Assembly (NCBI GenBank): GCA_043228905.1
Contig: JBHGNT010000007.1
Location: forward strand, 11,470,001 to 11,534,000
DNA length: 64,000 nt
Direction: 5' to 3'
Source: Azolla caroliniana
Taxonomy: Eukaryota > Plantae > Polypodiophyta
Positions 40,187-64,000 of the stretch are shown one piece after another. The notes under the pieces were generated by a model that was not told the DNA's origin, made no database searches, and worked only from the letters and a program-made list of their open reading frames with translations. Position 1 is the first letter of the stretch. Each line of letters begins with the position of its first letter. A program made the position numbers and the translations under genes.

Positions 40187-43100
40187 TGTTGGGATTACGG
40201 TCCCTTTCGGATGGGATGGTCGGATGTCGGAGATGAATGACGACAAGCCCGGTTTCGGTTTCGGAACCGGATGATGAAGATCCCGGTTACGGAGCCGGAT
40301 GACGAATGTACCCGGAGAGAGATCCGGATGCGGGGATATATTCGTGAATATGTTTGCCAAGAGCCCTTGAGGCTATAGTTGTAAATAGCCCGAAAGTCAT
40401 ATGTGTATAAATATGACTTAGGGCAAACAGTTTTAATGTTGCTACTCATTTTTCTGTTTTTCCACTCAAGAGGAGTGAAGAGAGAGCAACCGTGAGAGAG
40501 ATAGAGCGTGAGAGAGGAAGAGGTCGACGCCTCTGTGTATTTCCGCCGCCTGTGGCGAGGACAGCGAGCTCAAGGTCGTCGCCTTGTAGCTCGCCATTGT
40601 ATACTTCTCTGTGCATAGTTTTGCTTCGGAGTCTTGTACTCCCGTGGTTTTTCCCATACAGGGTTTTCCACGTTAAATCGTGTGTCCACTGCATTTCCCA
40701 TTTTCTGCAACAACGATTCGTGTGTTTTCCTTGGTTGTGGCCGAGAGGTGAAGTTTGGAAAATTTCGATTATTTCCATCAATTTGGTATCAGAGCGAGTT
40801 GCTGCAGAAAATGGAAGGCGGCGGCAGCGGGCAGCCGGGGATGATGGTGCTGAATGCGCAGAATTACGCCGACTGGAAGATCAAGATGGAGGATCTTCTG
40901 ATTGTTCGGGACCTGTACGAACCGATTGACAGGTCGGAAATACCGAAGGGGGTACTTGAGTCGGAATGGAGGCTTCTGAACCGGAAAGCCGTTGCAACCA
41001 TTCGGCAATACGTAGACGTGAGCGTTCTACAACATGTGGCGAACGACACCAACGCATATGAGATGTGGCGGAAGCTGTCGGGCCTCTATGAGAGGAAGAA
41101 TGCGTTGAACCGGACCTCCCTGATGAGGAAGATAGTGAACCTCAAGTACCGGGACGGCGAGAGTATGGTGGAACACGTAAGCACGTTCATGGGATTCGTG
41201 AACCAGCTTGCGGCGATCAAGTTCCCGCTGGAGGATGCAATGCAAGCCATCATTCTGATGTGTACATTGCCGGAAAGCTGGGAGAACTTGGTGGTGACTC
41301 TCAGCACCTCCTGCACCGAAGATAACTTGTCCCTACAAACGGTAAAGACAAGTATTTTGAACGAAGAAGCGCGTCGGAGAGATAAAGAACCGGCCTCCGA
41401 CTCGAAGGCGCTGCTTACCGAATCGGATCGGGGAAGACAATGGAACCGGAGTCCGCAAAGACGGGAGAAGTCGGGGACACGGTCGCAGTCAAGAGGAAGG
41501 CCCACATGCTTCCACTGTGGGAAGCCGGGGCACTTCCGAAAGAATTGTCGGCATTACCGAAAAGACAACAGAGCCGACGACACCGATTCGAAGAAGTCTT
41601 CGGAACGGAACGGTGCTTACCGGGGAGCCACGGACCGGAATGGTTCGGATCGGCGAGGGCAGGACCGGAAAGGAACGACGGCACTCGCGGCAAGTGAAGA
41701 GGAGGTCATGCTCATCACCGAAGAAGGTGAACTAAACATTGCCGGCGATGAGACTACCTGGGTGGTCGATTCCGGAGCGTCGTTCCACCTGACCCCGGAA
41801 AGAAGATACTTCTCATCCTACACAGTCGGTGAGCATGGCTGTGTTCGGATGGGAAATGAAGGTACGTGCCGGATTGCCGGCATAGGAGACGTGTGGTTGA
41901 CAACCCCGACCGGATGCAAAATGCTGCTGAAGGATGTCCGACACGTTCCGGAGGTTCGATTGAACCTGATTTCGACCGGGAGGCTAGACGATGAAGGCTA
42001 CACAGGTAGCATCCGGAACGGCGTAATGAAGTTCAGCAAGGGAAGCCTGATAGTGGCTCGGGCCCGGAAAGTCAACACATTGTACCTTATGAATGCCTGG
42101 TTGTGTCCGGAAGAGTTGAACGTGGCAGCCGACACTGCCGGTGAGCTGTGGCACAAGAGACTGTGCCACATGAGTGAGAAGGGGATGAAGAGGCTTGCAG
42201 AAGACAACCTTATTCCAGTGAAGCATGTGCACCTGGAGAAGTGCACCGATTGCCTGGCCGGTAAGCAGAACCGAACCTCCTTCCACTCAAGGCCACCGAC
42301 GAGACGTAGCGCACCATTGGAGTTGGTGCATACTGATGTGTGTCAGGTAGAAACGAAGTCACATGGCGGAGCCCAGTACTTCGTGACATTCATTGATGAT
42401 CACAGCCGGAAGCTATGGACGGCACCGTTGAAGACAAAGGACCAAGTGTTGTCCGTCTTCAAAGAACTCCACGCAAGAGTGGAAAGGGAATCCGGCAAGA
42501 AGCTGAAAGCGATACGAGCGGATAACGGAGGGGAATACCGGGGGCAGTTCGCGGAGTACTGTCGCTCGAAGGGAATCCGGCTCGAGTTTACTGTGCCGAA
42601 GACGCCGGAACTAAACGGGTTGGCCGAGAGGATGAACCGGACCATAATGGACAGGGTCCGGAGTATGCTGGCGCATGCGGAATTACCCAAGGGGTTTTGG
42701 GCTGAGGCGATGTCGACGGCGACATACGTGATAAACAGATCACCCTCAGTACCTTTGGACGGAGACACGCCGCAGAGAGTGTGGACCGGTAGGGAAGTAT
42801 CCTACCGGCATATGAAGGTGTTCGGGTGTCTCGCATATGTGCATGTGGCTAAGGACCGGAGAGGAAAGCTAGATCCAAAGACCCGGCCATGCATATTCCT
42901 CGGTTACGGCGATGACGAGTTCGGCTACCGAGTATGGGACCCGGTCGACAAGAAGATATTCCGGAGTCGTGATATCATCTTCATGGAGAACAAGACACTC
43001 GCCGACTGGGAGTCGGAGAAGAAGATGAAGAGCTCCAAGTCGACCGGTGAGGATCAACTCTACGAGGAGCAGTCCCGACCGGCAAGGGACCGGTTAGCAC

Positions 43101-45488
43101 TCGAGGATCCGGCCGAAGACGGTGAAGAAACAGAACCGGTCGAGGAAGATGAAACTGATACCGGAACCGGCCCCGATCCCGAAATGGGTTCGGATGAAGA
43201 GGAAACGGAGGAGCCGGTCACCGAAGCTCCGGAACGGAGATATCCTCTAAGAGAGAGAAGGGCCCCCCGGAGATTTCCGGAACCAGAGCACGTGCTGCTA
43301 ACCGACGAAGGGGAGCCGGAGAGCTTTGAAGAAGCAAAGCATGACACCCAGAGCCGCAGGTGGTTGAGTGCCATGCAGGATGAGATGGATTCCCTGCATG
43401 AGAACCACACATATGAACTTGTGGAGTTGCCGAAAGGAAAGCGGGCACTTCGAAACAAGTGGGTGTTCAAGCTGAAACCGGGAGATGCCGGAAACCCCCC
43501 GAGATACAAAGCCAGGATCGTGGTGAAGGGGTTTCAGCAAAAGAAGGGCGTCGACTTCGACGAGATATTTGCCCCGGTAGTGAAGATGACCTCCATCCGG
43601 ACGGTGCTGAGCATAGCGGCAAGCATGGACCTCGAGGTAGAACAGATGGACGTGAAGACGACATTCCTTCACGGTGACCTCGAAGAAGAGATCTACATGC
43701 AGCAACCGGAAGGATTCGAGAAGAAAGGGAAGGAGCACCTGGTATGCCGGTTGAAGAAGAGCCTTTACGGACTGAAGCAGGCTCCCCGGCAATGGTACCG
43801 GAAGTTCGACTCTTTCATGACCGACGAAGGGTACCTCAAAACGCAGTCCGACCACTGCGTGTTTGTGAAGAAGTTCGAAGGAGGAGACTTTCTAATACTC
43901 CTCCTGTACGTGGACGACATGTTGATCGTCGGACGAGACCAGGTCAAGATACGGATGCTGAAGAAGGCTCTTCACCGAACCTTCTCAATGAAGGACTTGG
44001 GTCCGGCGAGACAAATAGTAGGGATGCACATCATCCGGGACCGGAGCAAGAAGCAGTTGTGACTGTCACAGGAGAAGTACGTGACAAAGGTGCTTAAACG
44101 GTTCAACATGTCGGAAGCAAGACCGGTCGGGTCAACCCTCCCGACAAACTGCAAGCTGTCCAGCAAGCAAAGCCCCAAGACAAAGGCTGAGAAGGAGGAC
44201 ATGATGAAAGTGCCATATGCCTCTGCCGTCGGAAGCTTGATGTACGCAATGGTGTGTACCCGACCGGACATCGGATATGCAGTCGGAGTGGTGAGCCGGT
44301 ACATGAGCAATCCCGGCAAAGAGCATTGGAACGCGGCCAAGTGGATACTCCGATACCTGAAGGGCACGGCAAACGTGTACCTCCGATTCGGCTCCGGTAA
44401 GCCCGAACTTGACGGTTTTACCGATTCGGATATGTCGGCTGATGCAGATACCTGTCGGCCCACATCCGGGTATGTGATGACCTATGCAGGGGGAGCCGTT
44501 TCGTGGCAGTCGAGGCTGCAGAAGACGGTTGCGTTGTCAACCACGGAGGCGGAGTACATGGCAGCTGTTGAAGCCGGCAAGGAAATAATATGGATGAAGG
44601 ACTTCATTAGAGAGCTCGGGATCCGGCAGGAGGAGTACCGACTCTACTGCGATAGTCAGAGTGCCATCCACCTTGCAAAGAACGCGGCCTACCATTCCCG
44701 AACGAAACACATCCAGCGTAGATACCACTCGATCCGGGAAAGGAAGGAAGACAAGGAGTTCGTGCTGACGAAGATCCACACGGACGAGAACGGGTCGGAT
44801 ATGCTGACCAAGGTGCTCACACCCGACAAGCTGGAAGCATGCCGGAAGAGGATCGGATTGGAGAGACATCCCATGCCGAAGTGAAGGGGGAGTTTGTTGG
44901 GATTACGGTCCCTTTCGGATGGGATGGTCGGATGTCAGAGATGAATGACGACAAGCCCGGTTTCGGTTTCGGAACCGGATGATGAAGATCCCGGTTACGG
45001 AGCCGGATGACGAATGTACCCGGAGAGAGATCCGGATGCGGGGATATATTCGTGAATATGTTTGCCAAGAGCCCTTGAGGCTATAGTTGTAAATAGCCCG
45101 AAAGTCATATGTGTATAAATATGACTTAGGGCAAACAGTTTTAATGTTGCTACTCATTTTTCTGTTTTTCCACTCAAGAGGAGTGAAGAGAGAGCAGCCA
45201 TGAGAGAGATAGAGCGTGAGAGAGGAAGAGGTCGACGCCTCTGTGTATTTCCGCCGCCTGCGGCGAGGACAGCGAGCTCAAGGTTGTCGCCTTGCAGCTC
45301 GCCATTGTATACTTCTCTGTGCATAGTTTTGCTTCGGAGTCTTATACTCCCGTGGTTTTTCCCGTACAGGGTTTTCCACGTTAAATCGTGTGTCCACTGC
45401 ATTTCCCATTTTCTGCAACAACGATTCGTGTGTTTTCCTTGGTTGTGGCCGAGAGGTGAAGTTTGGAAAATTTCGATTATTTCCATCA
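40187..45488 (+). mobile_element. Full-length Tork-like copia nested in Bryco-like gag
   Basis: 594-bp LTRs 40187-40780 and 44895-45488 (about 8 transitions by eye), TSD TGTCG (40182-40186, 45489-45493), PBS 40784-40795, PPT ~44878-44892. Confidence 0.98.
40811..44884 (+). pseudogene. Copia gag-pol with a single nonsense codon (TGA 44060-44062 at a conserved Trp)
   Basis: Colinear with the 1345-aa protein at 15577-19614 (LLWLSQEKY there, QL*LSQEKY here). Confidence 0.95.
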
Positions 45489-48400
45489 TGTCGAAGGAGC
45501 TAATGATGCGGCACCCGAATCGACACACAGAGACTTTCCGTCGTGGGAGCAATCGGCGAGCAGGGTATTATACTGCTTCGTGTCGTGTGTGGGCGAACAA
45601 CTATTGAGCTATGTTCAGGATGTAAAGACGCCGAAGGGTGCGTGGGAAAATCTGAAGAAGATCTTCGCTGCGAGCACCACAGCCAGGAAGCTTCAGCTCC
45701 GACAGGAGTTGAGCAACCTACGACAACACGACTTGTCGGTGGCAGACTATACCTCGAAGATCAAGGATATCTGCGACTCCTTCGCCTCCATAGAGGTGAA
45801 CATCGAGGAGAGCGAGATGGTCCAGATCTGTCTCGGAGGTTTGGCGTTGACGTTCGGAGCATTCCGAATGGCTGTGTGTACCCGGGAGAATACGCCGTCC
45901 TTTTTCGACTTACAGTCGATGCTCCTGGTAGAGGAGAACCACGCGGGTGCGTCTACAAGCACGCACACCGACAACAGAATGTTGTACACAAAGGGAGATA
46001 GGCCCCGTGGACGTGGAGGACGAGGCGAGTCGGCACGCAATGGAGGCAGCTGACGAGATCAAGAAAGAAGGCACCGAAGTGATGCCAACAACAACTCCGG
46101 ACCCTCTGGAAACAGGGGGAGTTGAAGCGATGAGAACCGGCAAGGGAAGTCCATCGCGGAGTGCTGGTACTGTGGCAAGAAAGGCCACAAGGAAAGTGAG
46201 TGTTGGAAGAAGCGCACCGATTCGGAGAGAACTGGTTCCGGGAACGGCTCCAAACATACCGACAAGGGAAATCGGCAGCGATTGCACTACGCCGAAGACT
46301 CCGGGAGAGCCGGAGAAGGGACTGCCTTCGTGACGAGACACGAAGCAAACTCAATGAAGCAGACCACCCCGATTTCGGACGAGGTGTGGTACGTAGACTC
46401 CGGCGCGTCAAACCACATGATGAGCCATAAGGAGTGGTTCTCGTACCTTGAAAAACCGATACAACCTGGAGTAGTTGCAACAGGGGACGACACTCCGCAT
46501 CCGATCGCGAATGTCGAAGAAGTTCCCCTTAGCCATGTCGGGCAGAAAGGGAAACTCATGAACGTGCTGCACGTTCCGACAATCACAAAAAACTTGGTCT
46601 CGGTCGGACAAATCGTCGACCAAGGGATGGAGGTTCGGTTTACACACCTCGGGTGCTTCATTGAGGAAGAAGGCCGTGTGATTGCGCAAGGGCGTAGAGA
46701 CGGGAGGATGTTCATCCTCGACTCCACTGACGGCGGCACCGCAATGTTTGCGAAGGGACAAAAGACCGAGTCGGACATCGACTTGTGGCACAAGCAGATA
46801 AGCCACGTCAACCACCAACGGCTTCAAGATCTGCAATCGAAACAGGTAGTGTTCGGATTGCCCAAATTTAGTGGCCGAAAGGCACAAATTTGTGAAGCCT
46901 GCCAGCTCGGGAAGCAACACCGACTTCCCTTCCCCAACGAGCGAAACCGGAGCCGGAACAAACTCGACCTTATACACTCTGATGTGTGGGGGCCAACACA
47001 AAACATTAGTCTTGGCGAGAGCCGATATTTCTTCTCCTTCATCGACGACCACACGCGGCACACGTGGATCTACCTCATTGAGAGGAAGAGCGAAGTCTTC
47101 GACTGTTTCCGGGACCTCAAAGGGTTCGTGGAAGCCGAAACAGGATGGAAGATCAAGTGCCTGCGGTCGGATGGCGGAAAAGAGTACTTTTCCGGTCAAT
47201 TCAACGGTTATCTACAACAAATGGGAATTCGGCGCGAATTCGGTTGTAGATACACGCCAGAGCAGAACGGCGTGGCCAAGAGGAAGAATCGGTCAGTTGT
47301 GGAATCAGCACGGGCAATGCTGGAGGAAAAGAGCTTGCCTAAGTTCTACTGGGCCGAGGCGGTAAGGACCGCGGTATACATCCAAAACCGGATCGTAGAC
47401 AAAGTGTCGGCGCACGAGGTGTATTTCGGAACGAAGCCGAACTTGCGACACTTGAGGGTGTTCGGTAGCATTGCGTATGTGCATATACCGAAGGAGAAAA
47501 GGAGGAAGCTGGACGCAAAGGCCGAGAAATGCATCTTGGTCGGTTACTCGGACGAGCAGAAGGGTTATAAGTGCTATATCCCTTGCACCAAACAAGCGCG
47601 TGTCAGCTGCGACGTGGTGTTTGACGAGTCCGCATCCTGGTACCTGCCCCCGACTACGAACCTCGACTCCAATCCGAGTTCTGACGATGAGGTCAGCGAG
47701 GCCGAGATGCCTCCGAATGAGCCCGAAATCGAGACCCGCGAAGAGAGTCCGATTTCACTCCGGTTAAGTAGACCGATTGGACGACTAAGTCGGTACGACC
47801 GGTTCGATGAAGAGTCGGCGAGTAGTGGAGACTTGGTCGTGCATTCCCCGCGTAGGAAGCCGAGGAGACGGCTTACGCGCAAAGAGAAAGGGAAGAAGAA
47901 GGTGTCGGATTCCGGCACGGATAGGAGCGAGTCCGACTCCGAGGGAACCAGTGACAAGTCTTTAAAGATGAAGACCGCGTCGACCGAGAAGGCCTCGACA
48001 TCGGCTAATGTGAGATTATGCCGATCTACCCGCCAGAAGAACCCAGTTGTGCGGTTCGGATACAACGAGTACATGGCACATCATTATGCATACATGACCC
48101 GTGTAGCGGAAGTGCGTGAGCCGGAGAGCTACGCAGAAGCGGCTAAAGATGCGAATTGGCGTGCCGCGATGGAGGAAGAGATGCACGCATTGGCGGAGAA
48201 CGAGACCTGGGACCTGGTTGACGCACCAACAAGGGTAAAACCGATCGGGTGTACGGGGGTGTACAAGGTCAAGTACAACATTGATGGCTCGGTCAACCGG
48301 TACAAGGCTCGGCTAGTGGCAAAGGGCTATGCGCAGAAACACGACATCGACTACGATGAGACGTTTGCGTCGGTCGCGAAAATGACGACCGTTCGTGTTT

Positions 48401-50177
48401 TGCTCGCAGTAGCCGCGGCCAAGGGGTGGCACCTATATCAAATGGATGTAAAGAATGCGTTCCTGCAAGGTGACCTTGAGGAACAAGTGTACATGGTACA
48501 ACCCCCCGGATTTCACTCCGGAATGAACTCCTCGGCAGTATGCCGACTGAATAAGTCCCTTTACGGACTGAAGCAAGCCCCGCGTGCCTGGAATGCGAAG
48601 ATCACGCAACAACTGCGTCGGATGGGTTTCGTCACGTCAAAGTCGGACTCTTCCCTGTTCATCCGGAAAGGTCGACTCGGCCCGTTTAGTATTCTACTAT
48701 ATGTCGATGACTTGGTCATCACCGGCGCCGACCTAGGTGAAATCGACTGCGTGAAGCTCCAGCTTGCGGCATCGTTCGACATGAAGAATCTGGGAGACCT
48801 TCATTACTTGGGATCGAAGTGATCCGTACCCCCGAAGGCATATTGATCAGCGAACGTCATTACGTGCTGAGTATGCTCTTTAAATTCGGGATGGCCGACT
48901 GTAAGTCCATCTCGACTCCTCTGGACAGAACCGTCAAGCTTCGTCCCGATACGGGAAAGGTATGCAACCCGACGAGGTTCCGACAAATTGTCGGAAGCCT
49001 TATATACTTGACCATCACCCGACCCGACCTCAGTTATCCGGTCGGGGTGATCAGTCAGTTCATGGCGCGACCTACCGAGGAGCACCTTCAGTGTGCGCAA
49101 CGCATACTTCGGTATGTCAACGGCACTAAGGACCGGGGACTGCTATATCGCACCGGTGCAACCACGCGGTTAGTCGGCTACACCGATGCTGATTGGGCTG
49201 GCAACGCCGCCGATCGCCGATCCACGTCTGGATACGCGTTCTCCCTCGGGAGTGCCGCGATCGCGTGGAGCAGTAAGAAGCAGCCGACAGTTGCATTGTC
49301 GAGCACCGAAGCTGAGTTCCGAGGAGCGGCTGTCGCGACATGCGAAGCCATATGGTTGAAGCGGCTACTTAAGGACCTGCGAGAGGAGGTGTCCGATCCA
49401 ACGACGATCTACTGCGACAACCTCAGCAACATCCAACTCGCGAAGAACCCCATCTTCCACGCACGGACCAAGCACATTGAGGTGCACTACCATTTCGTCC
49501 GTGAGCGTGTCCTTTCCCATGAAGTCGAACTTCAGTACGTTCCGACGGATCGGCAGACTGCCAACATCGTCACCAAGCCTCTTGGTCTGGACAAGTTGCG
49601 GCAATTCTCAGGTGCGCTCGGATTGCGTCACCTCGACGTGCCAAACTTGAGGGGGAGAACAGTCCCGAACGACCAAGCAAAGCAGCAGGAAAGGAGCGGA
49701 GACCGCGACACCGAGTCGGTTGTCGACTTCGACTTCGGATCGGCTGAAGAAGCCGAGGGCGGACCCACCGAAAAGTTCGGAAGCGGACAGAAGGGGAGCA
49801 ACCGAAGGAGAGAGCTGAAGCCAACCACGCATGAGGAGGATGACGCCATCGAGGGCGAGAAGACCGAAGACGAGTTAGAGACAGCCAACTCGGACAAGAG
49901 CGAAGACCGATCGGAGGTAGCCGAGTCGGTTCGGATGTTTGATTCAGACACGATGAAGCAACTGAGGCCCAAGCGGAAGAAAAGGCAGCAGAAGAAGCGT
50001 CAACACCGCAACAACAGAAGAGCTGATGAGGGCCACATGAGTAGACAAGCCGACCAGAAGGGTCAAAGCGCGCGGAGTCAAACAGGTCGAGGAGCGCGAG
50101 CGAGGCAAGAAGCCAGGAGGAACCGGTGTTTTGAAGATCCCGAAGAGCCTCAAGTTGAGCTTGAGGAGGAGTGTTGA
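45489..50177 (+). pseudogene. Bryco-like gag-pol remainder; in-frame stop at 46051-46053, frameshift near 48810, charged C-terminal extension
   Basis: ORFs 45463-46053, 46282-48822 (DSGAS, HSDVWGP, RSDGGKEY, LLYVDD), 48819-50177 ([19 protein letters not shown]). Confidence 0.95.
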
Positions 50178-51174
50178 GAGACAAGCTCAACATCGGCCGG
50201 ATCGGCTGAAGAAGCCAAGGACCGGATCGGTTGGGACTGATCGGTTAGGCCGAGTGCATAAACCGGGAGGCCGTTAGGGAAGATATTCCGTGAGGAATAT
50301 ATTTGGGAGTTAGTGTAGGAGCTCTTGATTAGGATTGAAGTACTGTCAGTACTTCGGTCAGTCCTTCTAGGACTTGTATAAAAGTGCTCACTGAGCACGT
50401 CTTATGTACAGATTGAGTATTATTGTTGAATATAGTTTTTTGAGTTTCTCTCTCTGTCTCTCCCGAGTATACTACGTAAGCTCAAGCTCTCCATTGAACC
50501 TGAGTTTCCTTCCTTCTATTCGGTCTTCATACTTGCTTCCGCACGTTACTTTCTACAGTATATAAGTTATTACGTGATTTCAATATGGAATGTTTTCCTT
50601 TTCGAGGAAAGGATCTTGGTGGCCGTCCTCACATTTTTGTGAGAATGGCGTTGTCACCATCCCTTTTTCAACAAATTTTTATTGTTGACATCCCTGTTGG
50701 TGACTTTGATTTCGTTACGTAATGAAACAATCTTAGCCACAATGGTGTTGAGAACGTAGGGTTTGACCCACTTGATGTGGCGTCACTCTTATGACACACA
50801 TATCCAAACACGTTCGCGTTCACAAGTGGAAGGATCGTGTATAAATGGAAGGATAAGGAAAATTTTGGTTGATTTTAGGGTTTTTTCAATGATTTTACAA
50901 AACACATTGATACCTGTATCATACATGTTCAAACATACTATGAAAAAGGTTAAAAATTCACTATTTCCGTGATTTAGAAGTAACTAATAAAAGAGGAATT
51001 TCAAAAAGTTACATTCTCAATTTATATCACAAACTTTACAACCAATGTTATTTTATATGAAACGATTTTTTAGAAATCATAAGAAATCAAAACACATGCT
51101 TTTATATTACTCGATTTGTTACAAGCGGAATGTATTTACACTTAATAGCCAAAAATACATTCATGATCATTCCT

Positions 51175-54100
51175 TTACGGAGAATCACTACTATAACTAA
51201 TATACAATGACGATTCCTCCTCGTCATCCTCGAATGTACCAATCAGTGCATTATCTTCGTCATAAACCAAATGGTTTGACTCTAGATTATATGTAGCAGA
51301 TCTCGTTTGCCTTTGACTCGAGCCACCTTGTAGACCTAGTAATTTTTCTTTTATTATATCTATTGTTGACTTCCTTAATCGTCTGGATTTTATAAGTGTG
51401 GATTGGTACACGATGATATCCACATCAGAGATATCAAGGGTAGAGGTGTTATGAATGTTTCGCTTCCTCTTCCTACCTGCCCTTCTTGTTGGGCATTCAA
51501 TCATCTCCAATGTATACTTACCTGTAAAAGCATTTGCACTTCTAGTGTTGTACCAATGAATGTTTATAGACTTGATAGTGTTTTCTATTTCATGCATTAG
51601 CACTTCTAGAATTTTACCAACCCAAAATTGGTGGCCATGTGAATTCTCATCAGCCAGCGTTGCAATCAACATCCCCGCCGTGAGCTCTTGCAAATTGCCT
51701 TGCCATCTAGCTTTGGTTGCTTTGGTCATCCTTGGTCCCACATAAATGTCTCTTTGTTGTGGATGGACCAACCTGTCATTTATCGCATTTGTTGGTTGCT
51801 TTCTATTTACACGATCGTGTTGCGACGACCATGTGAATGGCGTTTCCAAATTCCAATTATCACCAAATACACAATTGTCTATAATTTCTTTCTGATCACT
51901 ATAAAATACATCCCACCATGATGTGTCTTGTTGTGCGGCATATTTCTTGGTGGCCTCAATATGCTTTCTTTTTTCTTCTAAGGCTTGGAGCCATAACCGT
52001 TTTTGTTCTGATACCAAGTCACTGTGCAACTGTCCTTTCTTCTCAATTGGCATTTGCTTAGCTCCATGGACAATTGTACTCGGCATACAAAGTAATAATT
52101 GGCAACCACCTTCAGGTTCCCATGTTGTAGAAGATGAATATTGTTTAGCATACAAAAATGTAGTCTAACCACTTATTTCATTTTTCTTTATCATAAAAAT
52201 GTGATTGAAGCTTATATTTTTTAACTGGGCAAGCACTTTAACATTCCCAACACCCCCATCTAATATATATCTCTTAAAGTCATATACCTCCTTCAAGTGT
52301 AACACTTTTGGGCGTGGTGTATATGCATCACAAATGATATCAAATAGTTTAGGTAATGTGAAAGCATCATGCCGAGACAACTGTCTAGAGAATGTGCTAA
52401 ACATCTGATCTATATGATCATGTGTGTGGCCAACCAAAAGAAAATTGACTTTCACTTTCCTAAAAAATCCTTAGTTGACCAACATACTTAGATAGCCAAA
52501 CACAGTTGAATTTTTGTTCTCTCTAGCAGTATTGTCCAATTGAATGTAAAGAACAGGGGGGAAAGGTTGGCCCCAAGACATCAAAACTCGGTGAATCACT
52601 ATAACTGTTAGGTTAGGGTCATTGTGAACATTGGGGTATGTAATGAAGACGTGAGGTCCAATAGACCTATTATAAGCTAAGCATCCCACCAAGTGCATTT
52701 GAACAAGGCGCTCATCATTGACGTCTTTGGGGAGCCTCCGCATATGCGGCAAGCACGTCTTCTTCTGGTCCATGCCATCTATCATTAAGCACATGTATTG
52801 TTCGGGCCTCTTCAAACACTTCTCTCTATGATGCATCGCCTTCTTTCGTTCTAACGGTTGTGCCTCACGATGCTCTTGTAGTAACTTCTTACTCATATAT
52901 TTTTCCATTGATGTCTTTGCACCTTTAGCCAAACTTTTAAGATTTGCACAAATGCAGCAATACCCCATGCGTACTTTACATGGAATGATAACATTTGAAA
53001 ACTGAGCTCTCCATAATCTTGTGAATTGGCTATATGTGATAGACTTATTAAAGTCATATACCTCCTTCAAGTGTAACACTTTTGGGCGTGGTGTATATGC
53101 ATCACAAATGATATCAAATAGTTTAGGTAATGTGAAAGCATCATGCCGAGACAACTGTCTAGAGAATGTGCTAAACATCTGATCTATATGATCATGTGTG
53201 TGGCCAACCAAAAGAAAATTGACTTTCACTTTCCTAAAAAATCCTTAGTTGACCAACATACTTAGATAGCCAAACACAGTTGAATTTTTGTTCTCTCTAG
53301 CAGTATTGTCCAATTGAATGTAAAGAACAGGGGGGAAAGGTTGGCCCCAAGACATCAAAACTCGGTGAATCACTATAACTGTTAGGTTAGGGTCATTGTG
53401 AACATTGGGGTATGTAATGAAGACGTGAGGTCCAATAGACCTATTATAAGCTAAGCATCCCACCAAGTGCATTTGAACAAGGCGCTCATCATTGACGTCT
53501 TTGGGGAGCCTCCGCATATGCGGCAAGCACGTCTTCTTCTGGTCCATGCCATCTATCATTAAGCACATGTATTGTTCGGGCCTCTTCAAACACTTCTCTC
53601 TATGATGCATCGCCTTCTTTCGTTCTAACGGTTGTGCCTCACGATGCTCTTGTAGTAACTTCTTACTCATATATTTTTCCATTGATGTCTTTGCACCTTT
53701 AGCCAAACTTTTAAGATTTGCACAAATGCAGCAATACCCCATGCGTACTTTACATGGAATGATAACATTTGAAAACTGAGCTCTCCATAATCTTGTGAAT
53801 TGGCTATATGTGATAGACTTATTACGTGAGCCCACCATATTAGATCGATAGACATTATAAACTTCCCGACATGTGTAATTATCAGAAAGGTGCATCCTAC
53901 CTGTAGTGGGCATTACTTCACAATTTAACTGAAACTAAGTTTTCATCCAACCAATAGCATGTTTTCCAATTGCACCTTTCATACTTGGAACCTCTTTACA
54001 ATTGAGCATCTGATCCCCGCTAAGTAGACGTTGTTGTACTCTATGTAGCCGCATGTTACTAACACATAACGCAATTTTGAATGCAACTCTACATATATGT

Positions 54101-54750
54101 TGCGCATGGAAGATATAATACTCGAATGATACTTTGATCCCCGTACATTTGTCAGACACTAGTTGCATATGTGACCCAAGGTAAGTGTCTTGCTCATCAC
54201 CAGTCATCGAAAAATAGTATCGCCTTAATTCTCACAACTTTGATTTTCTAATCACAGACATACAACCACGAGCACAACATATTTTTTTGACATCAAATCC
54301 AATCTGTTTATCTGATGTCACCAAGTTAAATCTAGACAGATGAATTCTTCGTGGGATTCTTCTAATATGCATAGGGCTTCCAAATTTCTCTTCCTGCATA
54401 GAAGTTGGTGTAACCTTGTTACTATCCAATTCTTTGTTGTGACCATCGCCCATGATATTCGATGTTTCATTGGCACTACCTTCATTGTCCGTATCTTTAT
54501 TAATATCGTATTCTTCAATAGAGAACTCTTCACATGTGTCATTATTCACATTCGTTGTAGGTGAAGATGAGCTCAGACAATACTCTTCGATAGAATATGG
54601 TAAGTCTGTCAACAGACAATATTCTTCAATAGAATATGGTCAATCTGTTGACAAACAATATTCTTCGGTAGAAAATGAAGAGTCTGATGACAAACAATAT
54701 TCTCAGTCATATTTAATATAGAACTTCTCAGTCATTGGTTCATTAATGGC
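51175..54750 (-). pseudogene. DDE-type transposase pseudogene (Sola-like / DUF7869-like)
   Basis: ORFs 54232-54612, 53935-54207, 53245-53913, 52471-53229, 52165-52455, 51175-52155 share one frame, separated only by in-frame stops; motifs CCARGC, CCICANL, IDGMDQKKT, IQLDNTARENKN, FLLVGHTHDHIDQMFS; start uncertain. Confidence 0.8.
52274..53824. repeat. 774-bp in-frame tandem duplication inside the transposase
   Basis: 52274-53047 matches 53048-53821; TTA microhomology at the junction. Confidence 0.96.
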
Positions 54751-55080: not shown

Positions 55081-55090
55081 CTATAAATAG
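55081..55090 (+). promoter_or_regulatory. TATA box candidate for the + strand companion gene
   Basis: CTATAAATAG about 190 bp upstream of ATG 55273. Confidence 0.55.
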
Positions 55091-55120
55091 GAAGACCTCG
55101 TCATATTTCACTCACACGAA

Positions 55121-55223
55121 ACACAAGAGCACACAAGAGCACACAAGAGCACACAAGAGTACACAGAGCACACAGAGCACACAGAGCACACAAAGCAAAC
55201 AGAGCAAACAGAGCACACAGAGC
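55121..55223. repeat. (ACACAAGAGC)n / (ACACAGAGC)n short tandem repeat in the putative 5' UTR
   Basis: About 11 units of 9-10 bp. Confidence 0.9.
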
Positions 55224-55272
55224 AGGAAGTACCATTGCGAGATCTCCGCCTAATAATCGACGAATATCAACC

Positions 55273-57660
55273 ATGTCTTCAAAGAAAATCGAGCGCCAGG
55301 GCTCCAGGTAAGCCTCTGGCACTGTGGACATTTTTGTAAATAAGTTTTAGCATCAGGAACTCGATACGGCGTATTGAGTTCTTGTATAAAACACAAAGAA
55401 TATGCATGAACTCGATACGGCGTATCTAGTTCTTGTGTGATGTTTAGGTTTTATACAGGAACTCGATACCGCATATCGAGTTCCTCTTCAAAGTTTTTGA
55501 TTTAAACAGGAACTCGATACGCCGTATCGAGTTCCTCTATTTCGTTTGCATTTTAAACAGGAACTCGATACGCCGTATCGAGTTCGTGTATAATATGTGT
55601 GTTTTATACAAGAACTTGATACGGCGTATCGAGTTCCTGTATTATGTTTGCGTTTTATACAGGAACTCGATACACTGTATCGAATTCCTCTATTTTGCTT
55701 GTGTTTTAAACAGGAACTCGAGGTGCCGTATCGAGTTCCTGTATAATATGTGTGTTTTATACAGGAACTCGATACGCTATCAAGTTGTTGTATTATGTTA
55801 GCGTTTTAAACAGGAACTCGATACGCCATATCAAGTTCCTGTTTAAAACACAAACGTTATACAGGAACTCGATACGGCGTATCGAGGTCCTATACATAGT
55901 TTATATTTTCCTATGTATAGTGTGCGTTTTAAACATTTATAGAGGAACTCGATATGCCATATCGAGTTCTTGTTTAAAACACAAACGTTATACAGGAACT
56001 CCATACGGCGTATCGAGGTCCTATACACAGTTTATATTTTCCTGTGTATAGTGTGTGTTTTAAACAGGAACTCGATACGCCGTATCGAGTTCCTATGTTA
56101 TGTAACTCTTTTACAGAGGAACTCGATACAGCGTATCGAGCTCCTGGATTATGTTTGTGTTTTATACAAGAACTCGATATGACGTATTGAGTCCCTGTAT
56201 AAAACAAGAACTTGAAAGAGGAATACTGTGTCTTTGGGGCAACAACTTAGTATTGTGTGAAAAGATATCAAACTTTCTATCAAAATCAGTCTTTTTTTAG
56301 GGTGATTTGCCTTATTTTGTAAAAAATAGGGGCCTTAATAATAGAGGTTTTATGACCTAGTATAGCTTAAAATAGTACAAAATAAGCCACAAATTACCTT
56401 TACGATACCAAATTCAAGTCTATCATATGCAAATTCTCTACAACATGGATATGGAATCAATAGAAGCCATACCTACCCTTCAAAACAATATATATCCTTG
56501 TATACTTATTAAGATATATATTTTCTAAGTTGAATATCCCTTACTACAATAGATTTCTGAATATAGGACTCCCATGTACACTCAATGCATGATTGATATT
56601 TATAGTTTACCACAAATCACCCACTACTTTATTTATTGATCTAATTATTTGTATTTTAATATACAATCTTAATCTACGTGACCACCTAACCTATGTTTGT
56701 GCATGTCCTTTCTTAAATAGGTCGTTTGAGAACTTGTCAGACCGACCTGGGAAGAAGATAAAGCTCTGCATACAGGGTTCTCCAATTGAAACATAGACCC
56801 TAATAGCTCCAGAGACCATGAAGAGAGGACAAAATCTCAATCACACATTGAGGTTAACCAGAAGAAAGTGTAGTAGCTACTGGAGGTGAAGACCTTCCTG
56901 ACCGTGATCTAACGGACAAGGAATGGTGTATGCAATACGTCGACACCGAGAAAAAGTCGTATTGTATACAACAAAGAAGAAGGGCGAGGGGCAGCTTGAA
57001 AATGAAACCCCATTTATGTATGGTCGTATTCTACGATTTGACTACGAAGATGTAGATTCGGCCAACATACTTGTAATGATAGAGTGCTCTAAAGGGGTAC
57101 GTAAAGTGTTCCTTTCTGAAGATCTTCTAGTAAAGGAATCTTGTGGGCCATAAGCTTTCAAAAAAGATCTTGAAAGCTCACAAAACCTTATTGTTACCTT
57201 GAGGCCTTATATACAAGGCCATGTAACTCTAAGGGAGCCATTGCCCTCCCCAATGAAGGCTAGAAAAAGGGCATCTAAAGTACAATCAAGACCACCAAAA
57301 AAGAAGACCACCAAAATGTCGGACTCTGACTCATCAAGTGAAAACGAAGATGACGACACTAAGGGGACACCAGGAGCTGATCTGGCATCGGGTTTGTTGT
57401 CATCCGAGAAGAATAAGATACGAAGAGAGTTAATGCAGCGTAAATTGGTCAGGAAAGGGCAAGTGTTTAATTTGCCTATAACACACATCCATCGTTCCCC
57501 AATTGATGAAAAAACAAGACGAAGACCACTGGAGATTAGAGAGCCACACCCCATGCATGTTCAAAATCTCAAGAAAAAAATGAAAATTAATCCTCATGCC
57601 ACTATGGTGTCTTTTATTGTTATGGTGGATCTTGAAGAATGTGAAACCATTGAAGATTTT
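55273..57660 (+). pseudogene. Spliced companion gene of the transposon (exon 55273-55307, intron 55308-56720, exon from 56721), decayed and interrupted by a copia at 57661; possible ParB-like domain start
   Basis: MSSKKIERQGS-AG|gtaagc...ttcttaaatag|G gives in-frame RSFENLSDRPGKKIK; further ORFs 56923-57153 and 57199-57663. Confidence 0.6.
55355..56196. repeat. Array of 16 palindromic 29-bp repeats (AGGAACTCGATAC-GSC-GTATCGAGTTCCT) with mostly 22-bp spacers, 51-bp period
   Basis: Unit starts 55355, 55406, 55457, 55508, 55559, 55610, 55661, 55712, 55763, 55812, 55863, 55943, 55994, 56066, 56117, 56168. Confidence 0.96.
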
Positions 57661-60600
57661 TGAAAACGATTACTTGCGGAAGCGTTAGAAAACAGAGGAA
57701 GCAAAGAATACACAGAGTACACGGGAGAGACAGAGAGAGCAGAACGTAAAAGCTATATTCAAAAAAACAATAAAAACATTATCTCTAGTTTCAACTGTGC
57801 TCAGTAGCACTATTCATACAAGTCCTCATGGGACTGATAGAAGTACCGCGTACTTCAATGCTCACACGAGTATCTGACACTTACTACGAGACTATAACTA
57901 CCTAGTAGTCTAAACTAATAGTAGGCTTCCGGTTACCGATTGGATCTGACTAACCGGCTCCCTAGCTCACCGGCTCGGTTGCTCACCAGCTTACCGATCC
58001 GTCTCGCTCACCGGCTCAGGCTTATCTAGCCTATCCGGCTCCAGTTGAGCTTGCTGCTCAACACTCCCCCTCAAGCTCAACTTGAGGTTGGATCCTAGTG
58101 TCAGCCTCTATGGCAGTCAGTTCTTCCAACCGACTTCTCCTGGCGTCACTCGGCTTGCTCGCGCTCCTCGTCCGGTCCGGTTCTGTTTGCCGCGACCCCT
58201 CTTGTTCTGCGCACCTCGACCTCCTCGGTCGGCTTGTCTGCTCAACAGGCCCAATTCAGCTCCCTTGCTGCTGTGACTTCGGCGCGTTCCGGTTCGTTGA
58301 TTCCATCGTGTTGGCGTCGACTTTCACTGCCTTCTCATCCTCTTGGCCTTGAATTGATCCGGTTCTTCCGAGTCTGTCTGTTGAACCGAACTAACTGTCT
58401 CTGATTCGTTCCAGCTCTTGTCCGAATCAGTTGCTCCCGATTCCTCTTTTGGTTCCAAGCCCTTCACCACATCGGACCATGTCTGGGTCTTGGCCTTCTT
58501 CCTTCGGTAGGCTTTGTCCTTCTTGACTCTGCCGTCGCTGCCTCTTGTTCCGACTTGTTCGGACGTGTCGACTTCCCTTCTCGACTAGGCTTCTTTCTTC
58601 TTCTTGACTCTCCCTTCGTCGGTTCTTCCCTCACCGGCGCAATCGGCAGTCTCTTTGCCTTTGCCCGTTCCGGTGTCTTTGCCCGTTCTCCCCCTCAAGT
58701 GTGGCACGTTGATATGATGAACACCAAGCATTTCGGTGGAGTGTTGCAACTTGTCCGAACCGAGTGGTTTGGTGAAGATGTTGGCAACTTGCCGATCCGT
58801 GTGAACATACCGAAGTTCGACCTCTCCGCTCAGGACACGCTCACGCACGAAGTGATAGTGCACTTCTATGTGCTTTGTGCGAGCATGGAATATGGGGTTC
58901 TTGGCGAGTTGCATGCTGCTTATGTTGTTGCAGTAGACCAGAATCGGGGTCGGTACCTCGATCCGTAGATCTTGCAGTAGTCGCCGAAGCCAAATGGCCT
59001 CATAGGTGGCAATGGTAGCGCCTCGATACTCAGCCTCAATGCTCGACAGAGCAACTGTTGGCTGCTTTTTGCTGCTCCACGCAACAACCGCGCTACCTAG
59101 GGAAAACATGTAACCAGAGGTTGATCGGCGATCTGATGCATCGCCGGCCCAGTCGGCATCTGTGTAACCGACCAGCTCTTCGGGTATACCGTTGTCGCGT
59201 TATTATGCGCGTGCGTGTGGAAGGGGCGGGACCACGGGGGTCTTGGACGAGGGAGAAGAGGAGAAAGGTTAAGACAACGAATGGAAGATTAGCTCATAGC
59301 TCGAGAAGAGAAGAGAACGAATATGACATTATGATAGAAGAAGACGAAGAAGATGGAGTCAAGATACTCAACAAGAAGTTCGATTAAGAAAACATAAATG
59401 CTTTACAATGGTGGCCGCCATGGCCGTACCAAACGACTATAAGAAAACCCTAAAGGAAAACCCAAGAAGAAACCCTAACCGAACCCTAACGCTCGACCTA
59501 TATGGTATACCTCGCACACTCAAAATAGGCAACCCCCACAATGGTGCCTTCTCTCTCCTTTTATAGCACAAGAAGGGAAGACCGTTTACAAAAGTGAGAC
59601 GAAAATATCCCCTTTCATTCAAAGGGGATATTTGCCTTGATTTGGGGGAGGGTGAGATTGATGGCCCCTTAACTCCCACCTCCTCACAAACAACTAGGTA
59701 CCTATGTACCGCATAGTACCTCTCTCTCTCTCTCTCTCTCGTGTGGATGTGCGTACAACCACATCACCTTTATACCTTTATTACTATTACAAATACATTA
59801 TGTACGTGTGTAACGTTGCACATCTCTCTTTGGCTCTCGTTGCTCGGGTTTCCGCTTGTGGACGAAAATCTTCACGACACCGTGCCGGTATAACAGGCCC
59901 CAGTCCTTCGTGCCGCTTACATATCGCAGTATCCGTTGCGCGCATTGAAGGTGCTCCACGTTCGGCTTCTGCATGAACTGACTTATCATTCCGACCGGAT
60001 AGCTGATGTCAGGTCGCGTGATAGTCAAGTAAATAAGACTCCCGACAATTGGTCGGAACTGTTTCTCGTTGCAAGCTGGTCCGGAGTTGGGACGAAGCTT
60101 CGGGTTCCGGTCCAAGGGTGTGGATATAGGTCGGCATTCTGTCATGCCGAACTTGTACAACATATTCAAGACGTGATGTCGTTGTGAGAGCAATACATCG
60201 TCGGGGGTTCGGATCACCTCGATCCCAAGAAAATAATGAAGGTTCCCCAGGTCCTTCATCTCAAATGCGTCCGACAACTGGGACTTGACGCGGTTGACTT
60301 CTGGAAGACCCGGTTCGGTGATGACTAAATCCTCAACATACAACAAGATACATACCGGACCGGTTGAGCCTTGCTGGATGAACAACGAAGAGTCGGACTT
60401 CGAGGCCGCAAATCCCATCTTACGCAACTGGTGCGTGATCTTCGCATTCAAAGCTCGAGGGGTTTGCTTCAGGCCGTACAACGACTTCTTTAGTCGGCAT
60501 ACCGCCGACTTGTTCATCTCCGATTGAAAACCGAGGGGCTGAGTCATAAAGACTTCTTCTTCAAGATCACCCTGAAGAAACACATTCTTCACATCCATCT

Positions 60601-63600
60601 GGTGAAGAAGCCACCCCCTTGCAACAGCAATCGCTAGCACCACATGAACCTTCGTCATCTTGGCTACAGGAGCGAAGGTCTCGTCGTAGTCGATTTCGTG
60701 GGTTTGCTCGTATCCCTTCACCACTAACCGGGCCTTGTAGTGGTTAACTGAACCGTCGGCGTTGTGCTTTACCTTGTACACCCACTTGCATCTTATCGGT
60801 TTACAGTGACGAGGAGGGTCAACTAGGTCCCATGTCTCGTTGACATTAAGTGCCCACATTTCTTCCTCCATAGCGGCACGCCAATTTGCGTCTTTTGCCG
60901 CTTCTGCATAGCTCTCTGGCTCACGTACTTCCACCACTTTAGTCATGTACGCATAGTGATGCACCATGTACTCATTGTACCCGTACCGCATGACGGGATC
61001 CTTCTGGCAGGTGGACCGGCGTAACTCACCGTTACCCGGTTTAAGGGCTTTCTTGGCCGGTTCGGTCTTCGTTGCCGAAGATACACCTTTCTCCTTGCCG
61101 GAGTTGGATGCACACTGATCCAACTCATCGTTGCCGGTTTCGAATGCCGACATCTTTTTCTTCCCTTTCTCTTTGCACGTGAAACGTCTCCTCGGTTCCT
61201 TGCGCGGGGAGAGCACGGTAGAGTCTCCACTACTCGCCGGTTCCTCATCGGATTGGTCAGATTGATTCAGTCTCTCGTTCGGCCCGCTCAACCGAAACGA
61301 TTCCGGACTCTCATCCTGAGTCCACGCTTCATCATCATCTACCTGGGCCGGTTCAGGCTCACTAGCCTCATCCTCCGGCATCGGGTCGGATTCGGAAGTC
61401 GGAGCCGGTAAGGAGTACCATGATGCCAATTCATCGAACTCGACATCTCGACTAACTCGGACCTGCTTTATCCGGGGGTTATAACACTTATAACCCTTTT
61501 TCTCTTGAGCATAGCCGATTAGGATGCATTTTTCCGATTTTGCATCTAGCTTCCTCCGCTTCTCATCCGGTACATGCACATATGCAATGCTACCGAAGAT
61601 GTTAAGGTGTCTCAAATTCGGCTTGTGCCCGAAATACAGCTCGTGAGCTGACACCTTCTCACCGATCCGGTTTTGGATGTAGACAGTCGTTCGAACTGCC
61701 TCCGCCCAGTACAATTTGGGCATGCTCTTCTCCTCCAGCATTGCCCTTGCCGCATCAATAAGCGATCAGTTCTTCCTTTCGGCAACACCATTCTGTTGCG
61801 GTGTGTATCTATAGCTGAACTCTCGCCGAATTCCCTTTTGTTGTAGATAACTGTTGAATTGGCCGGAAAAGTATTCTTTTTCGCCATCCGACCGCAGGCA
61901 TTTGATCTTCCTCTCCGATTCCCGTTCCACCATGCTTTGGACACTCCGGAAACACTCGAAGACTTCACTCTTCCGCTCAATGAGGTAGATCCATGTGTGC
62001 CGCATATAGTCGTCGATGAAGGAGACGAAATATCGACTCCCGCCAAGACTAACATTCTATGCCTGATGAAGGTCGAGCTTGTTACGGCTCCGGTTACGTT
62101 CGTTGGGGAATGGAAGCCGGTGTTGCTTCCCGAGTTGACAGGCTTCACATACTTGGGCCTTCCGGCTGCTGAACTTCGGCAAACCGAAAACAACTTGTTT
62201 CGCTTGCAGGTCTTGAAGCCTCCGGTAATTGACGTGGCCTATCTGCTTGTGCCATAGGTTGATGTCTGATTCGACATTCTGTCCATTTGCAAACAGAGCG
62301 GTGCCGACATCATTGGTGCCGAGGATAAACATCCTCTCGTCTCTGCGCCCTTGCGCAATAATCTGGCCCTCTTCCTCGATGAAGCACCCGAGGTGCGTAA
62401 ACCGCACCTGCATCCCTTGGTCAACGATCTATCTGACTGACACCAGGTTCTTCGTGATTGTCAGAATATGTAATACGTTCATCAGCTTCCCCTTCTGTCT
62501 GACGTGGCTCAAAGGGACTTCTCTGACGTGCACGATTGGGTGAGGAGTGTCGTCTCCGGTTTCGACTACTCCTAGTTGATCCGGTTTTTCCAAAAAGGAG
62601 AACCACTCTTTGTGGCTCGTCATGTGGTTCGACACACCGGAATCAACATACCACACTTTCTCCGATTTGAAAGTGGTCTTCTTCATCGAGTTCGCCTCGT
62701 GCTTCATCACCAAGGCTGGCCCGTTACTGTTCTTGGATACTCCTGATCCCTTCACGTAGTGCGAGCTTTGCTGGCCATCCTTGCCGGCCTTGCCGGATCC
62801 GGATTTGTCCGAATCGGCGCGTTTTCTCCAACACTCGCTTTCTCTGTGGCCCTTTTTGCCACAGTACCAGCATTCCGTTGCAGTCTTCTCTTGCCATCTT
62901 CCGATGCCACCATGACTCCCCCTACTCCCGGAGGGTCTGGAACTGTTGTCAGCACGTTCTCTGAGCCTTTGTTCCTGGTCTTGCTGGCCGCCTCCATTGC
63001 GTGCCGACCCGCCTCGTCCACCACGCCCACGGGACCGATCCGCTTCCGTGTACAGCATCCGGTTGTCAATGGGTGCGCTAGTTGACACACCGGCGTGGTT
63101 CTCCTCTACAAGGAGCATCGACTATAAGTCGAAAAACGACGGCGTATTCTCCCTTGTACATACCGCCATTCGGAACGCTCTGAACTTAGACGCCAGGCCC
63201 CCAAGACAGACCTGTACCATCTCGTCTTCCTCTACGGTAACGTTGATAGAGGCAAGCGAGTCACATATCTCTTTGATCCGGGCCGTGTAATCTGCCACCG
63301 ACATGTCCTTCTGTTGGACATTGCTCAACTACTGTCGGAGTTGCAACTTCCGGGATGTAGTACTCGTGGCGAAAACCTTCTTCAGGTTTCCCCAAGCCTC
63401 CTTCGGCGTCTTGGCGTCTTGGATGTGGCTCAGCAGTTGGTCTCCGACACTGGACGCGTAGCAGTACATCACTCTGCTTGCCGATTGTTCCCACACTGGG
63501 AAATCCTTATGTGTTGCATCAGGTGCTATTTCGTTGGCTCCTTCGACGAAACTCTAGTAGCCATGCCCAAGCAGGTACTGGTGCATCTTGTACAACCAAG

Positions 63601-64000
63601 ATGCGTAGTTGGATCTGTCGAGTTTCTCCACAAGGAGTGAGCTAGCCATTCCTCTATCCATCACTTCTCTGTCTGTTGTTCTTACGACCTGTTAGGGTTT
63701 GCTTTCAAGCGTTTGTCGGCTACAGAGGTTCTCAACCCTCGCGCTCTGATACCATGAAAATGATTACTTGTGGAAGCGTTAGAAAACAGAGGAAGCAGAG
63801 AATACACAAAGTACACAGGAGAGACAGAGAGAGCAGAACGTAAACACTATATTCAAAAAAACAATTAAAACATTCTCTCTACTTACAACTGTGCTCAGTA
63901 GCACTATTCATACAAGTCCTCGTGGGACTAACAGAAGTACCGCGTACTTCAATGCTCACACGAGTATCTGACAATTACTACGAGACTATAACTACCTAGT
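57661..64000 (-). mobile_element. Near-complete degenerate Bryco-like copia (5' LTR runs off the window)
   Basis: 3' LTR 57661-58063, PPT 58064-58075, PBS 63743-63754, 5' LTR from 63755; gag start 63661; ORFs 62429-63118, 59798-61741, 58585-59109. Confidence 0.95.
59193..59879 (-). mobile_element. Solo LTR (687 bp) inserted between RT and RNase H of the copia
   Basis: TGTCG..CGACA termini, 4-bp TSD CCGT (59189-59192, 59880-59883); removing it restores [15 protein letters not shown]. Confidence 0.93.

Follow-up and report, generated by a model that had tools for sequence, protein, structure and literature searches.

Genes for ParB-domain proteins have been described in transposons of brown and red algae. 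In Ectocarpus, the element Sola1-1_Ec32 carries a gene for a ParB-like protein with an N4-cytosine/N6-adenine methyltransferase opposite the transposase, and the part of the paper that treats it proposes that the product binds and modifies its own element (PMC12477816). In Bostrychia, the PAG3/PAG2 cassette of Plavaka elements has tandem inverted-repeat arrays beside ParB-domain genes (bioRxiv 10.1101/2025.02.11.637652). Both proposals of ParB self-binding stand as hypotheses in the passages concerned. Here, we report an array of 16 palindromes in a Sola-like transposon of Azolla caroliniana (Polypodiophyta), found in a 64,000-nucleotide stretch (GenBank assembly GCA_043228905.1, contig JBHGNT010000007.1, positions 11,470,001 to 11,534,000, forward strand) that was analyzed as a whole and is called the window below. 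The array is located in the predicted first intron of the second gene of the element, open reading frame 2 (ORF2), the product of which is predicted to join a ParB-like fold and an N6/N4 DNA methyltransferase in one protein. The palindromes share a core that is conserved among lineages, they are spaced by whole helical turns and they are kept in a derivative of the element without genes; we lean toward reading them as putative phased, parS-like binding sites for the element's own ORF2 protein.

By its description in the parts of the paper available, Sola1-1_Ec32 is among the closest known systems: it is a Sola-type transposon with a ParB-like/methyltransferase gene on the strand opposite the transposase. 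It differs in that it belongs to a brown alga and is 21.5 kb long, in contrast to ~9.5 kb here, and the string "palindrom" is absent from the main text of PMC12477816, which gives no array, core or phasing. The Plavaka cassette, as its passages describe it, belongs to the EnSpm/Plavaka superfamily, its ParB domain is fused to a 2-oxoglutarate oxygenase and its methylase is encoded separately, by a gene that has a SET domain; those passages contain no analysis of core, phasing or orientation. In the VANDAL transposons of Arabidopsis, the part of the literature concerned reports that VANC binds short motifs tandemly amplified in its own introns and intergenic regions and relieves silencing (PMC5735166), and a passage of bioRxiv 10.1101/2025.02.11.637652 names VANC as the only protein known to bind and modify its own element. 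The likeness to the present case is that of a transposon protein with repeated motifs inside its own element, introns included. However, the VANC motifs as described there are asymmetric 8-9-mers that diverge between families, whereas the Azolla core is palindromic, phased and conserved, and the action of VANC was shown experimentally, whereas ORF2, with its methyltransferase domain, is known from sequence and a model. The Azolla element may act in a similar way but is not a VANDAL: it has a DUF7869 transposase and a 4-bp target-site duplication (TSD) rather than a Mutator-like transposase, and ORF2 is ParB-like/PF01555, not VANC.

Two further comparisons concern the parts of the predicted protein. 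Bacterial ParB-parS systems (7bnk, 6sdk, 7bm8, 6s6h) likewise combine a ParB/Srx N-fold, here predicted, and a helical DNA-binding domain with clustered palindromes; ORF2, however, is 11-19% identical to bacterial ParB, has an altered nucleotide motif and a fused methyltransferase, and no ParA was seen. MpDN4MT1, which has TSPPY, and the bdelloid N4CMT are host genes, and N4CMT has been linked to transposon silencing (bioRxiv 10.1101/2021.02.12.428880, PMC8885841). In the passages available from these papers they are, like ORF2, amino-methyltransferases of prokaryotic type in eukaryotes with the catalytic motif before the S-adenosylmethionine (AdoMet) motif, whereas ORF2 is transposon-borne, has DIPY and is fused to a ParB-like part. 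The open-access literature listings, taken without the supplements of the papers, gave no description from a land plant, no core and no phasing rule for such an array, and the ParB-methylase passages in the part of a 2016 review of adenine methylation that was available do not concern this element.

The palindrome array and its transposon

The array occupies positions 55354..56196 of the window and consists of 16 palindromes with the core AACTCGATAC-NNN-GTATCGAGTT and a 51-bp period. Fifteen palindromes were found by a pattern search of the window, with starts of the 27-bp core from 55356 to 56169; the sixteenth, at 55764, carries a 2-bp deletion and was read from the sequence. The near-strict 51-bp period given in the preliminary description of this locus holds for 12 of the 15 intervals, the remaining three being 49, 80, and 72 bp. 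Beyond the array, no match to the core was found in the window with up to seven mismatches allowed. Genome-wide there are 2,120 exact 23-mer sites and none for the reversed control pattern, and the array, folded as DNA, has a folding z of -21.7 against 100 shuffles; the palindrome array is real, its signal far beyond chance. Bacterial parS is a 16-bp site, whereas the Azolla site is a gapped 23-bp palindrome. The loops are mixed (GCC 6, GGC 5, other 4; n = 15) and do not alternate between GGC and GCC as had been described. The spacers after units 1, 10, and 12 are in reversed orientation, exactly as noted before; the last two, however, correspond to each other as copies within a single 131-bp tandem duplication (55805..56066, forward strand, 93% matches), so that they record one flip and not two. 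The two ends of the spacer, TGTWTAA...TTAWACA, also form an inverted repeat, i.e., the array unit is a ~41-bp palindrome plus a 10-bp asymmetric linker. Arms are 88% alike inside the window and orientation-normalized spacers 70%.

The likeness to a CRISPR array that was suggested at first is superficial: the spacers are 70% alike, with recurring types common to several loci, and the site is an intron of a eukaryotic transposon, flanked by the DUF7869 transposase and the ParB-like/methylase gene. No cas gene adjoins the array among the four window ORFs scanned with Pfam, and the 523-Mb genome is eukaryotic, with introns and long terminal repeat (LTR) elements.

The preliminary description had overlooked the host transposon together with its ParB-methylase gene. 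When the own genome (523 Mb) was searched at the DNA level (the best 40 of 610 candidates scored and 30 loci fetched), the DNA flanking the array proved to be common to the window and to all 30 fetched loci. From ten 20-kb stretches, the element was defined as 8.7-10.2 kb long (~9.5 kb) with terminal inverted repeats (TIRs) of ~36 bp. The 4-bp TSD is perfect in eight of nine distinct two-ended elements and has one mismatch in the ninth; the duplications recorded are TCGG, CTTG, AACA, AATG twice, TTAT, TTAG, and CTAA, in addition to TCCA for the window copy. Thirteen consecutive 23-mer clusters were fetched from contig C1: 11 occupy the position of the window array in the two-gene element, and two belong to a derivative with identical TIRs. 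The TIRs themselves do not contain the core. A second lineage of the element in the own genome, L146 (G000:C8:4528400-4538399), is 74% identical and has the core variant TCCGATGC at a spacing of 51 bp.

In the window, the left TSD (TCCA, 50803..50806, the same four bases following the right TIR 2,073 bp beyond the window end) is followed by the left TIR (50807..50842, forward strand, ~36 bp, starting with AACACGTTCGCG and without palindrome core). ORF1 (51175..54703, reverse strand) is a broken DUF7869 transposase (PF25273, E 1e-43). It contains stops and a 774-bp tandem duplication (53000/53774; span 53000-53824), and ~330 bp that are present in other copies are missing at 54703/54708. An LTR-retrotransposon insertion (57661..64000, reverse strand) interrupts ORF2; the transposon resumes 174 bp beyond the window end after a deletion of ~1.46 kb that comprises most methyltransferase exons. 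The window copy is dead: it has lost the transposase start and most methylase exons, ORF2 contains stops, and the LTR element is inserted at 57661. We presume that DUF7869 motifs are tied to the Sola superfamily, hence our designation of ORF1 as Sola-like; TIRs and a 4-bp TSD are traits of the Sola type. Sola1 is described, in the part of the source that treats it, as preferring AWWT targets (PMC3845634), and none of the nine TSDs listed above is AWWT. A 39-bp coding tandem repeat at the N-terminus of the transposase (54574-54703) encodes SIEEYCLS-like peptide repeats, the number of which varies among copies.

A predicted TATA-like box of ORF2 (55081..55091, forward strand) lies ~270 bp upstream of the array and has its equivalent at the same place in other lineages. 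Predicted exon 1 (55273..55307, forward strand) starts with ATG, encodes a basic peptide in 35 nt and ends at a GT donor at 55308; ~20 nt past the donor, at 55322..55330 on the forward strand, is a CTGTACGGAC-like intronic motif conserved in several lineages (CTGTGGACA in the window). Predicted exon 2 (56721..57660, forward strand, AG acceptor at 56719-56720) reaches the start of the ParB-like domain and contains stops and a frameshift in this copy. The array is therefore in predicted intron 1 of ORF2, in agreement with the intronic position proposed earlier, and the layout of ATG, exon, GT, array and AG is found in 11 of 12 loci compared, the twelfth being without the exon-1 stretch at that place. 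No RNA data set was listed as containing an intact copy; two runs that may be RNA gave 0 contigs and a run of uncertain kind gave 13, none with a splice joint, which speaks neither for nor against expression, and such contigs would not reveal somatic flips. The predicted 5' untranslated region also contains a ACACAGAGC microsatellite of 9-10-bp units (55121-55224) that varies among copies.

The derivative has TIRs identical to those of the two-gene element and a 4-bp TSD, is 3.5-4.2 kb long and is multi-copy (best 40 of 3,355 candidates scored; loci L162, L163, and L164-L175, e.g., G000:C1:17158676-17162158). In two copies, tblastn gave no match to the ParB part, the exon-2 start or the first 577 transposase residues, and these two copies keep 10 and 14 palindromes. 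There are 10-16 palindromes in 10 of 12 derivative loci; the other two, of partial sequence, have 4 and 9. Palindromes with ATT/AAT loops are arranged as mirror images near both ends, and those with GCC/GGC loops are in internal repeats of ~258 bp; close pairs are mostly 49-51 bp apart. That a derivative without genes retains the palindromes suggests a site that acts in trans as DNA rather than an intron RNA.

Conserved core and whole-turn spacing

A metagenome scan gave 80 loci, 32 of which have at least two sites upstream of exon 2; the remaining 48 have fewer than two, many because the contig starts too near the match. Clustered at 88% nucleotide identity, the 32 loci and the copies from the own genome fall into 21 groups, 20 of which have usable gaps; L085 was left out, as it has no gap below 110 bp. 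L017 was dropped as a duplicate of L016 here and in the flip-tree and decay analyses. Across the 20 lineages, the symmetrized majority core is AA.YCGATRC-NNN-GYATCGR.TT, with half-site positions A-11, A-10, C-7, G-6, A-5, T-4, and C-2 identical in all 20. Loops, by comparison, vary freely among lineages (GCC, ATT, TGA, CTG, GGG, TAG, AGT), and flanks differ too. We do not claim co-evolution of the core with a recognition helix, as core variation against the putative helix follows the tree.

The distances between neighbors fall into classes of 30-33, 39-43, and 49-54 bp, i.e., three, four and five helical turns, with two values at 56. In the 19 lineages besides the window's family, no gap is found at 34-38 or 44-48 bp, and of the 49 gap values no larger than 60 bp, 40 are in phase, in comparison with 39% expected. 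In 19 of 20 lineages, the most frequent gap deviates by no more than 2 bp from a multiple of 10.3 (39% expected). For the 70 distinct lineage-gap values, R is 0.64 at a period of 10.5, which none of 2,000 uniform and none of 2,000 jittered nulls reached, and the signal survives removal of the ~51 class (0/5,000). The turn class switches nine times on a 17-row tree. It should be kept in mind for all gap values that long gaps may sum over missed units and that assemblies can collapse repeats. Within the family of the window, phasing is seen in all 5 shared gaps but is absent from the private ones (13 of 31; R = 0.11), which are probably post-insertion damage. These statistics are compatible with a protein bound along one face of the helix, as had been supposed from the phasing in the window. 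On one metagenome contig (L065:4755-5649), a second palindrome cluster was seen downstream of the ParB match, with gaps of 74, 96, 231, 52, 63, 72, 63, 124, 39, and 80, mostly near whole turns.

Spacer flips, turnover and decay

The comparison of spacer orientation across genomic copies that the preliminary description had called for confirms that both orientations exist: 75 of 365 51-bp spacers in 44 own-genome loci are reversed (L017 retained, L146 without anchor in this count), and 11 spacer types occur both ways. Most copies have the first spacer in reverse, and this reversal is therefore inherited; of the 324 internal spacers, 49 are in reverse. In a 35-copy tree, the loop center of unit 1 switches between purine and pyrimidine seven times, whereas the other 28 positions of this palindrome switch at most once each and 1,253 flank columns switch 0.73 times on average (maximum 6). 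Seven changes compare with a mean of 11.2 for shuffled labels, i.e., loop states are inherited and not reset, and they are weakly coupled to the orientation of the neighboring spacer. In these data, replacement of unit 1 by a neighbor may look the same as a loop flip. Unit number changes quickly: copies with 98.6-99.1% identical flanks carry 16, 10, 10, and 2 units.

Template switching between inverted arms is described, in the relevant parts of two papers, as inverting loops and spacers while leaving the arms unaltered (PMC8794818, PMC8604942). The published cases are single hairpins, whereas here inverted arms are available in every pair of units. Because each unit is a direct and an inverted repeat of all others, switching or exchange would flip loops and spacers and change unit number, and the flips likely arise by template switching or exchange between palindromes. 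As they leave core and spacing intact, selection would not see orientation, and spacer and loop flips are likely passive, tolerated noise. The earlier proposal of flipping by recombination stands in that spacers and loops do flip; its programmed form is not supported, no recombinase domain, whether of the tyrosine or serine type that is linked to shufflons or of another, having been found in Pfam scans of the four window ORFs and four ORF2 pieces of the intact copy L045.

Between decaying copies, seven orthologous blocks indicate that arms changed by 4.9-7.1%, a figure inflated by truncated ends of two blocks, and non-methylable spacer sites by 1.4%. The view that repeats are better conserved than spacers is thus correct within the array and across lineages, and fails between decaying genomic copies. 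Because arm decay in dead copies, mostly by CpG/CHG transitions, equals or outpaces that of spacers, the conservation of core and phase reflects selection on active lineages and not protection of every copy.

The predicted ORF2 protein and candidate binders of the array

ORF2 is under strong purifying selection, to judge from its coding sequence: L134 against 16 representatives gives proportions of synonymous differences (pS) of 0.58-0.97, near saturation, and of nonsynonymous differences (pN) of 0.04-0.18. The ParB-like part was modeled with AlphaFold from the intact copy L045 (278 aa, 67-row alignment, predicted local distance difference test score 88), and the 14 best-ranked rows listed by Foldseek for this model are ParB, Spo0J, Noc, and KorB. 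After re-scoring of 285 chains from Foldseek, the N-domain aligns with a Z of 6.7-6.9 (root mean square deviation 2.6 over 82 residues) and model residues 118-278 align with ParB DNA-binding domains at Z 3.5-5.2, which suggests, at modest scores, the two-domain fold of ParB. In more intact copies, ORF2 continues into a predicted amino-methyltransferase of the beta type (a PF01555 match with E 3e-8 to a single exon among the L045 pieces). The motif order DIPY ... QKP ... DLFSGT, kept across lineages, places the catalytic motif before the AdoMet motif, as in beta-class N6-adenine/N4-cytosine enzymes. ADIPYG is found in 44 of 51 metagenome loci and 20 of 20 own loci, i.e., one proline is replaced in a strongly conserved motif. 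Homologues are present in Ceratopteris richardii and Chara braunii, and the Chara braunii protein is likewise fused to PF01555; this homologue (P0021, a 1,609-aa prediction) apparently has two ParB-like plus methylase modules.

If the model holds, ORF2 would bind the symmetric half-sites as a dimer and would assemble on the array along one face of the helix; it would probably methylate the DNA of its own element, countering host silencing. That ORF2, rather than the transposase or a host factor, binds the array seems to us somewhat the likelier case. It is possible, and no firmer than that, that anti-silencing is the purpose of array and ORF2. The full scheme, in which the ParB-methylase loads cooperatively, spreads, writes N6-methyladenine or N4-methylcytosine (6mA/4mC) and so shields autonomous and gene-less copies from silencing by 5-methylcytosine (5mC), is more tentative still.

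Several points weigh against ORF2 as the binder and writer. The transposase is as conserved as ORF2 and as linked to the array. The resemblance to ParB is modest, with 5e-3 as the lowest Foldseek E and 6.9 as the highest Z, no ParB sequence match to the ORF2 domain was obtained in Pfam, PDB-profile or PHROG searches, and an Atlas search with the domain gave as leads only DUF3723 or unnamed eukaryotic clusters. The usual nucleotide motif of ParB, GxxR, contains an arginine, which the corresponding GGSHSAEARR of ORF2 (in 65 of ~90 alignments) does not have at that place. The canonical methyltransferase motif IV is DPPY/SPPY, (D/N/S)PP(Y/F), and with DIPY instead, the predicted methyltransferase activity and its target base are uncertain. 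As to the sites, the lineages are related, so that the phasing counts are not fully independent; the value of 10.3 bp was picked after seeing the data, the scan optimum being 10.5; and the long gaps of the derivative (110-114, 122, 129, 255-260) are not clearly phased. One lineage, on two contigs (L089, L092), has a single intron site, which implies that the array is not obligatory. The palindromes of genomic copies also show heavy CpG/CHG transition decay, which implies methylation by the host, at least after the death of the copies.

The most serious of the other explanations, though an unlikely one, is that the array is an internal enhancer that is bound by the transposase, or by ORF2 as an architectural helper, and bends the DNA for the transpososome, with no role in methylation. 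Retention in the gene-less derivative, which must be moved in trans, fits it, as do the phasing and the A/T-tract spacers. However, neither the TIRs nor the remainder of the reference element contain the core, the array is ~4 kb from the nearer element end and tracks the ORF2 intron in all lineages examined, and similar arrays adjoin ParB-domain genes in an unrelated transposon superfamily, as the passages on the Bostrychia cassette describe. Less probable is an intronic enhancer or operator for a dimeric host factor that drives or limits ORF2 and the transposase from nearby divergent promoters; phased symmetric sites suit dimeric factors and the predicted TATA box is close, but the derivative keeps the array with no genes to transcribe, and a predicted palindrome-binding fold is encoded immediately beside it.

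A role as RNA, in which a multi-hairpin intron yields small RNAs or affects splicing, had been offered in the preliminary description and is, in our opinion, improbable. The fold is very stable, the intronic position is conserved and both arms change between lineages; but template switching also yields changes in both arms. Compensatory double changes within arms numbered 14 in 494 units, where 11.4 were expected, so that there is no excess of them. Spacing by helical turns, which RNA stems do not need, and free loop sequence indicate duplex DNA, and the sites are kept in the derivative. Of 40 sub-threshold Rfam hairpin matches (39 microRNA families and one bacterial small RNA), none reaches the gathering score, and we rejected them as generic.

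That the array is a neutral, self-perpetuating palindromic minisatellite, its symmetry kept by template switching, is very improbable and already largely refuted. The very fast turnover of units and the decay of dead-copy arms at least as fast as that of spacers would be expected of it; self-repair, however, preserves symmetry but neither sequence nor phase, the core has outlasted the saturation of synonymous sites, and phasing is confined to the inherited gaps. A shufflon-like switch, the functional state of which would be set by a recombinase that inverts spacers, can account for spacers found both ways, yet with non-coding near-palindromes as spacers, loop states inherited along the tree and no recombinase domain in the scanned ORFs, it is hardly credible.

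Elsewhere in the window, three Copia-type elements were seen: an LTR retrotransposon at 15577-19614 with an uninterrupted 1,345-aa frame (recognized by eye) and two further elements at ~40600-44900 and ~45400-50200. A 43-bp tandem array of 7.7 copies (28656-28986) contains AACCCT telomere-like hexamers. An open frame at 20553-21122 resembles, by eye, the C-terminal exon of a plant class III peroxidase and is the sole host-like gene seen among the long ORFs of the window.

The algal papers, in the passages available, propose that ParB-domain proteins of transposons bind and modify their own elements. To this proposal the Azolla family supplies a candidate site, CGATRC-N3-GYATCG, and a rule of whole-helical-turn spacing, and with its natural controls, i.e., dead copies, a gene-less derivative and 20 lineages, it makes the proposal directly testable. 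If the reading of the array as binding sites for the ORF2 ParB-methylase is true, a loading-and-marking system of bacterial type would be working in plant chromatin, and it would be a source of DNA marks other than 5mC in plants and a compact, sequence-specific epigenetic writer.

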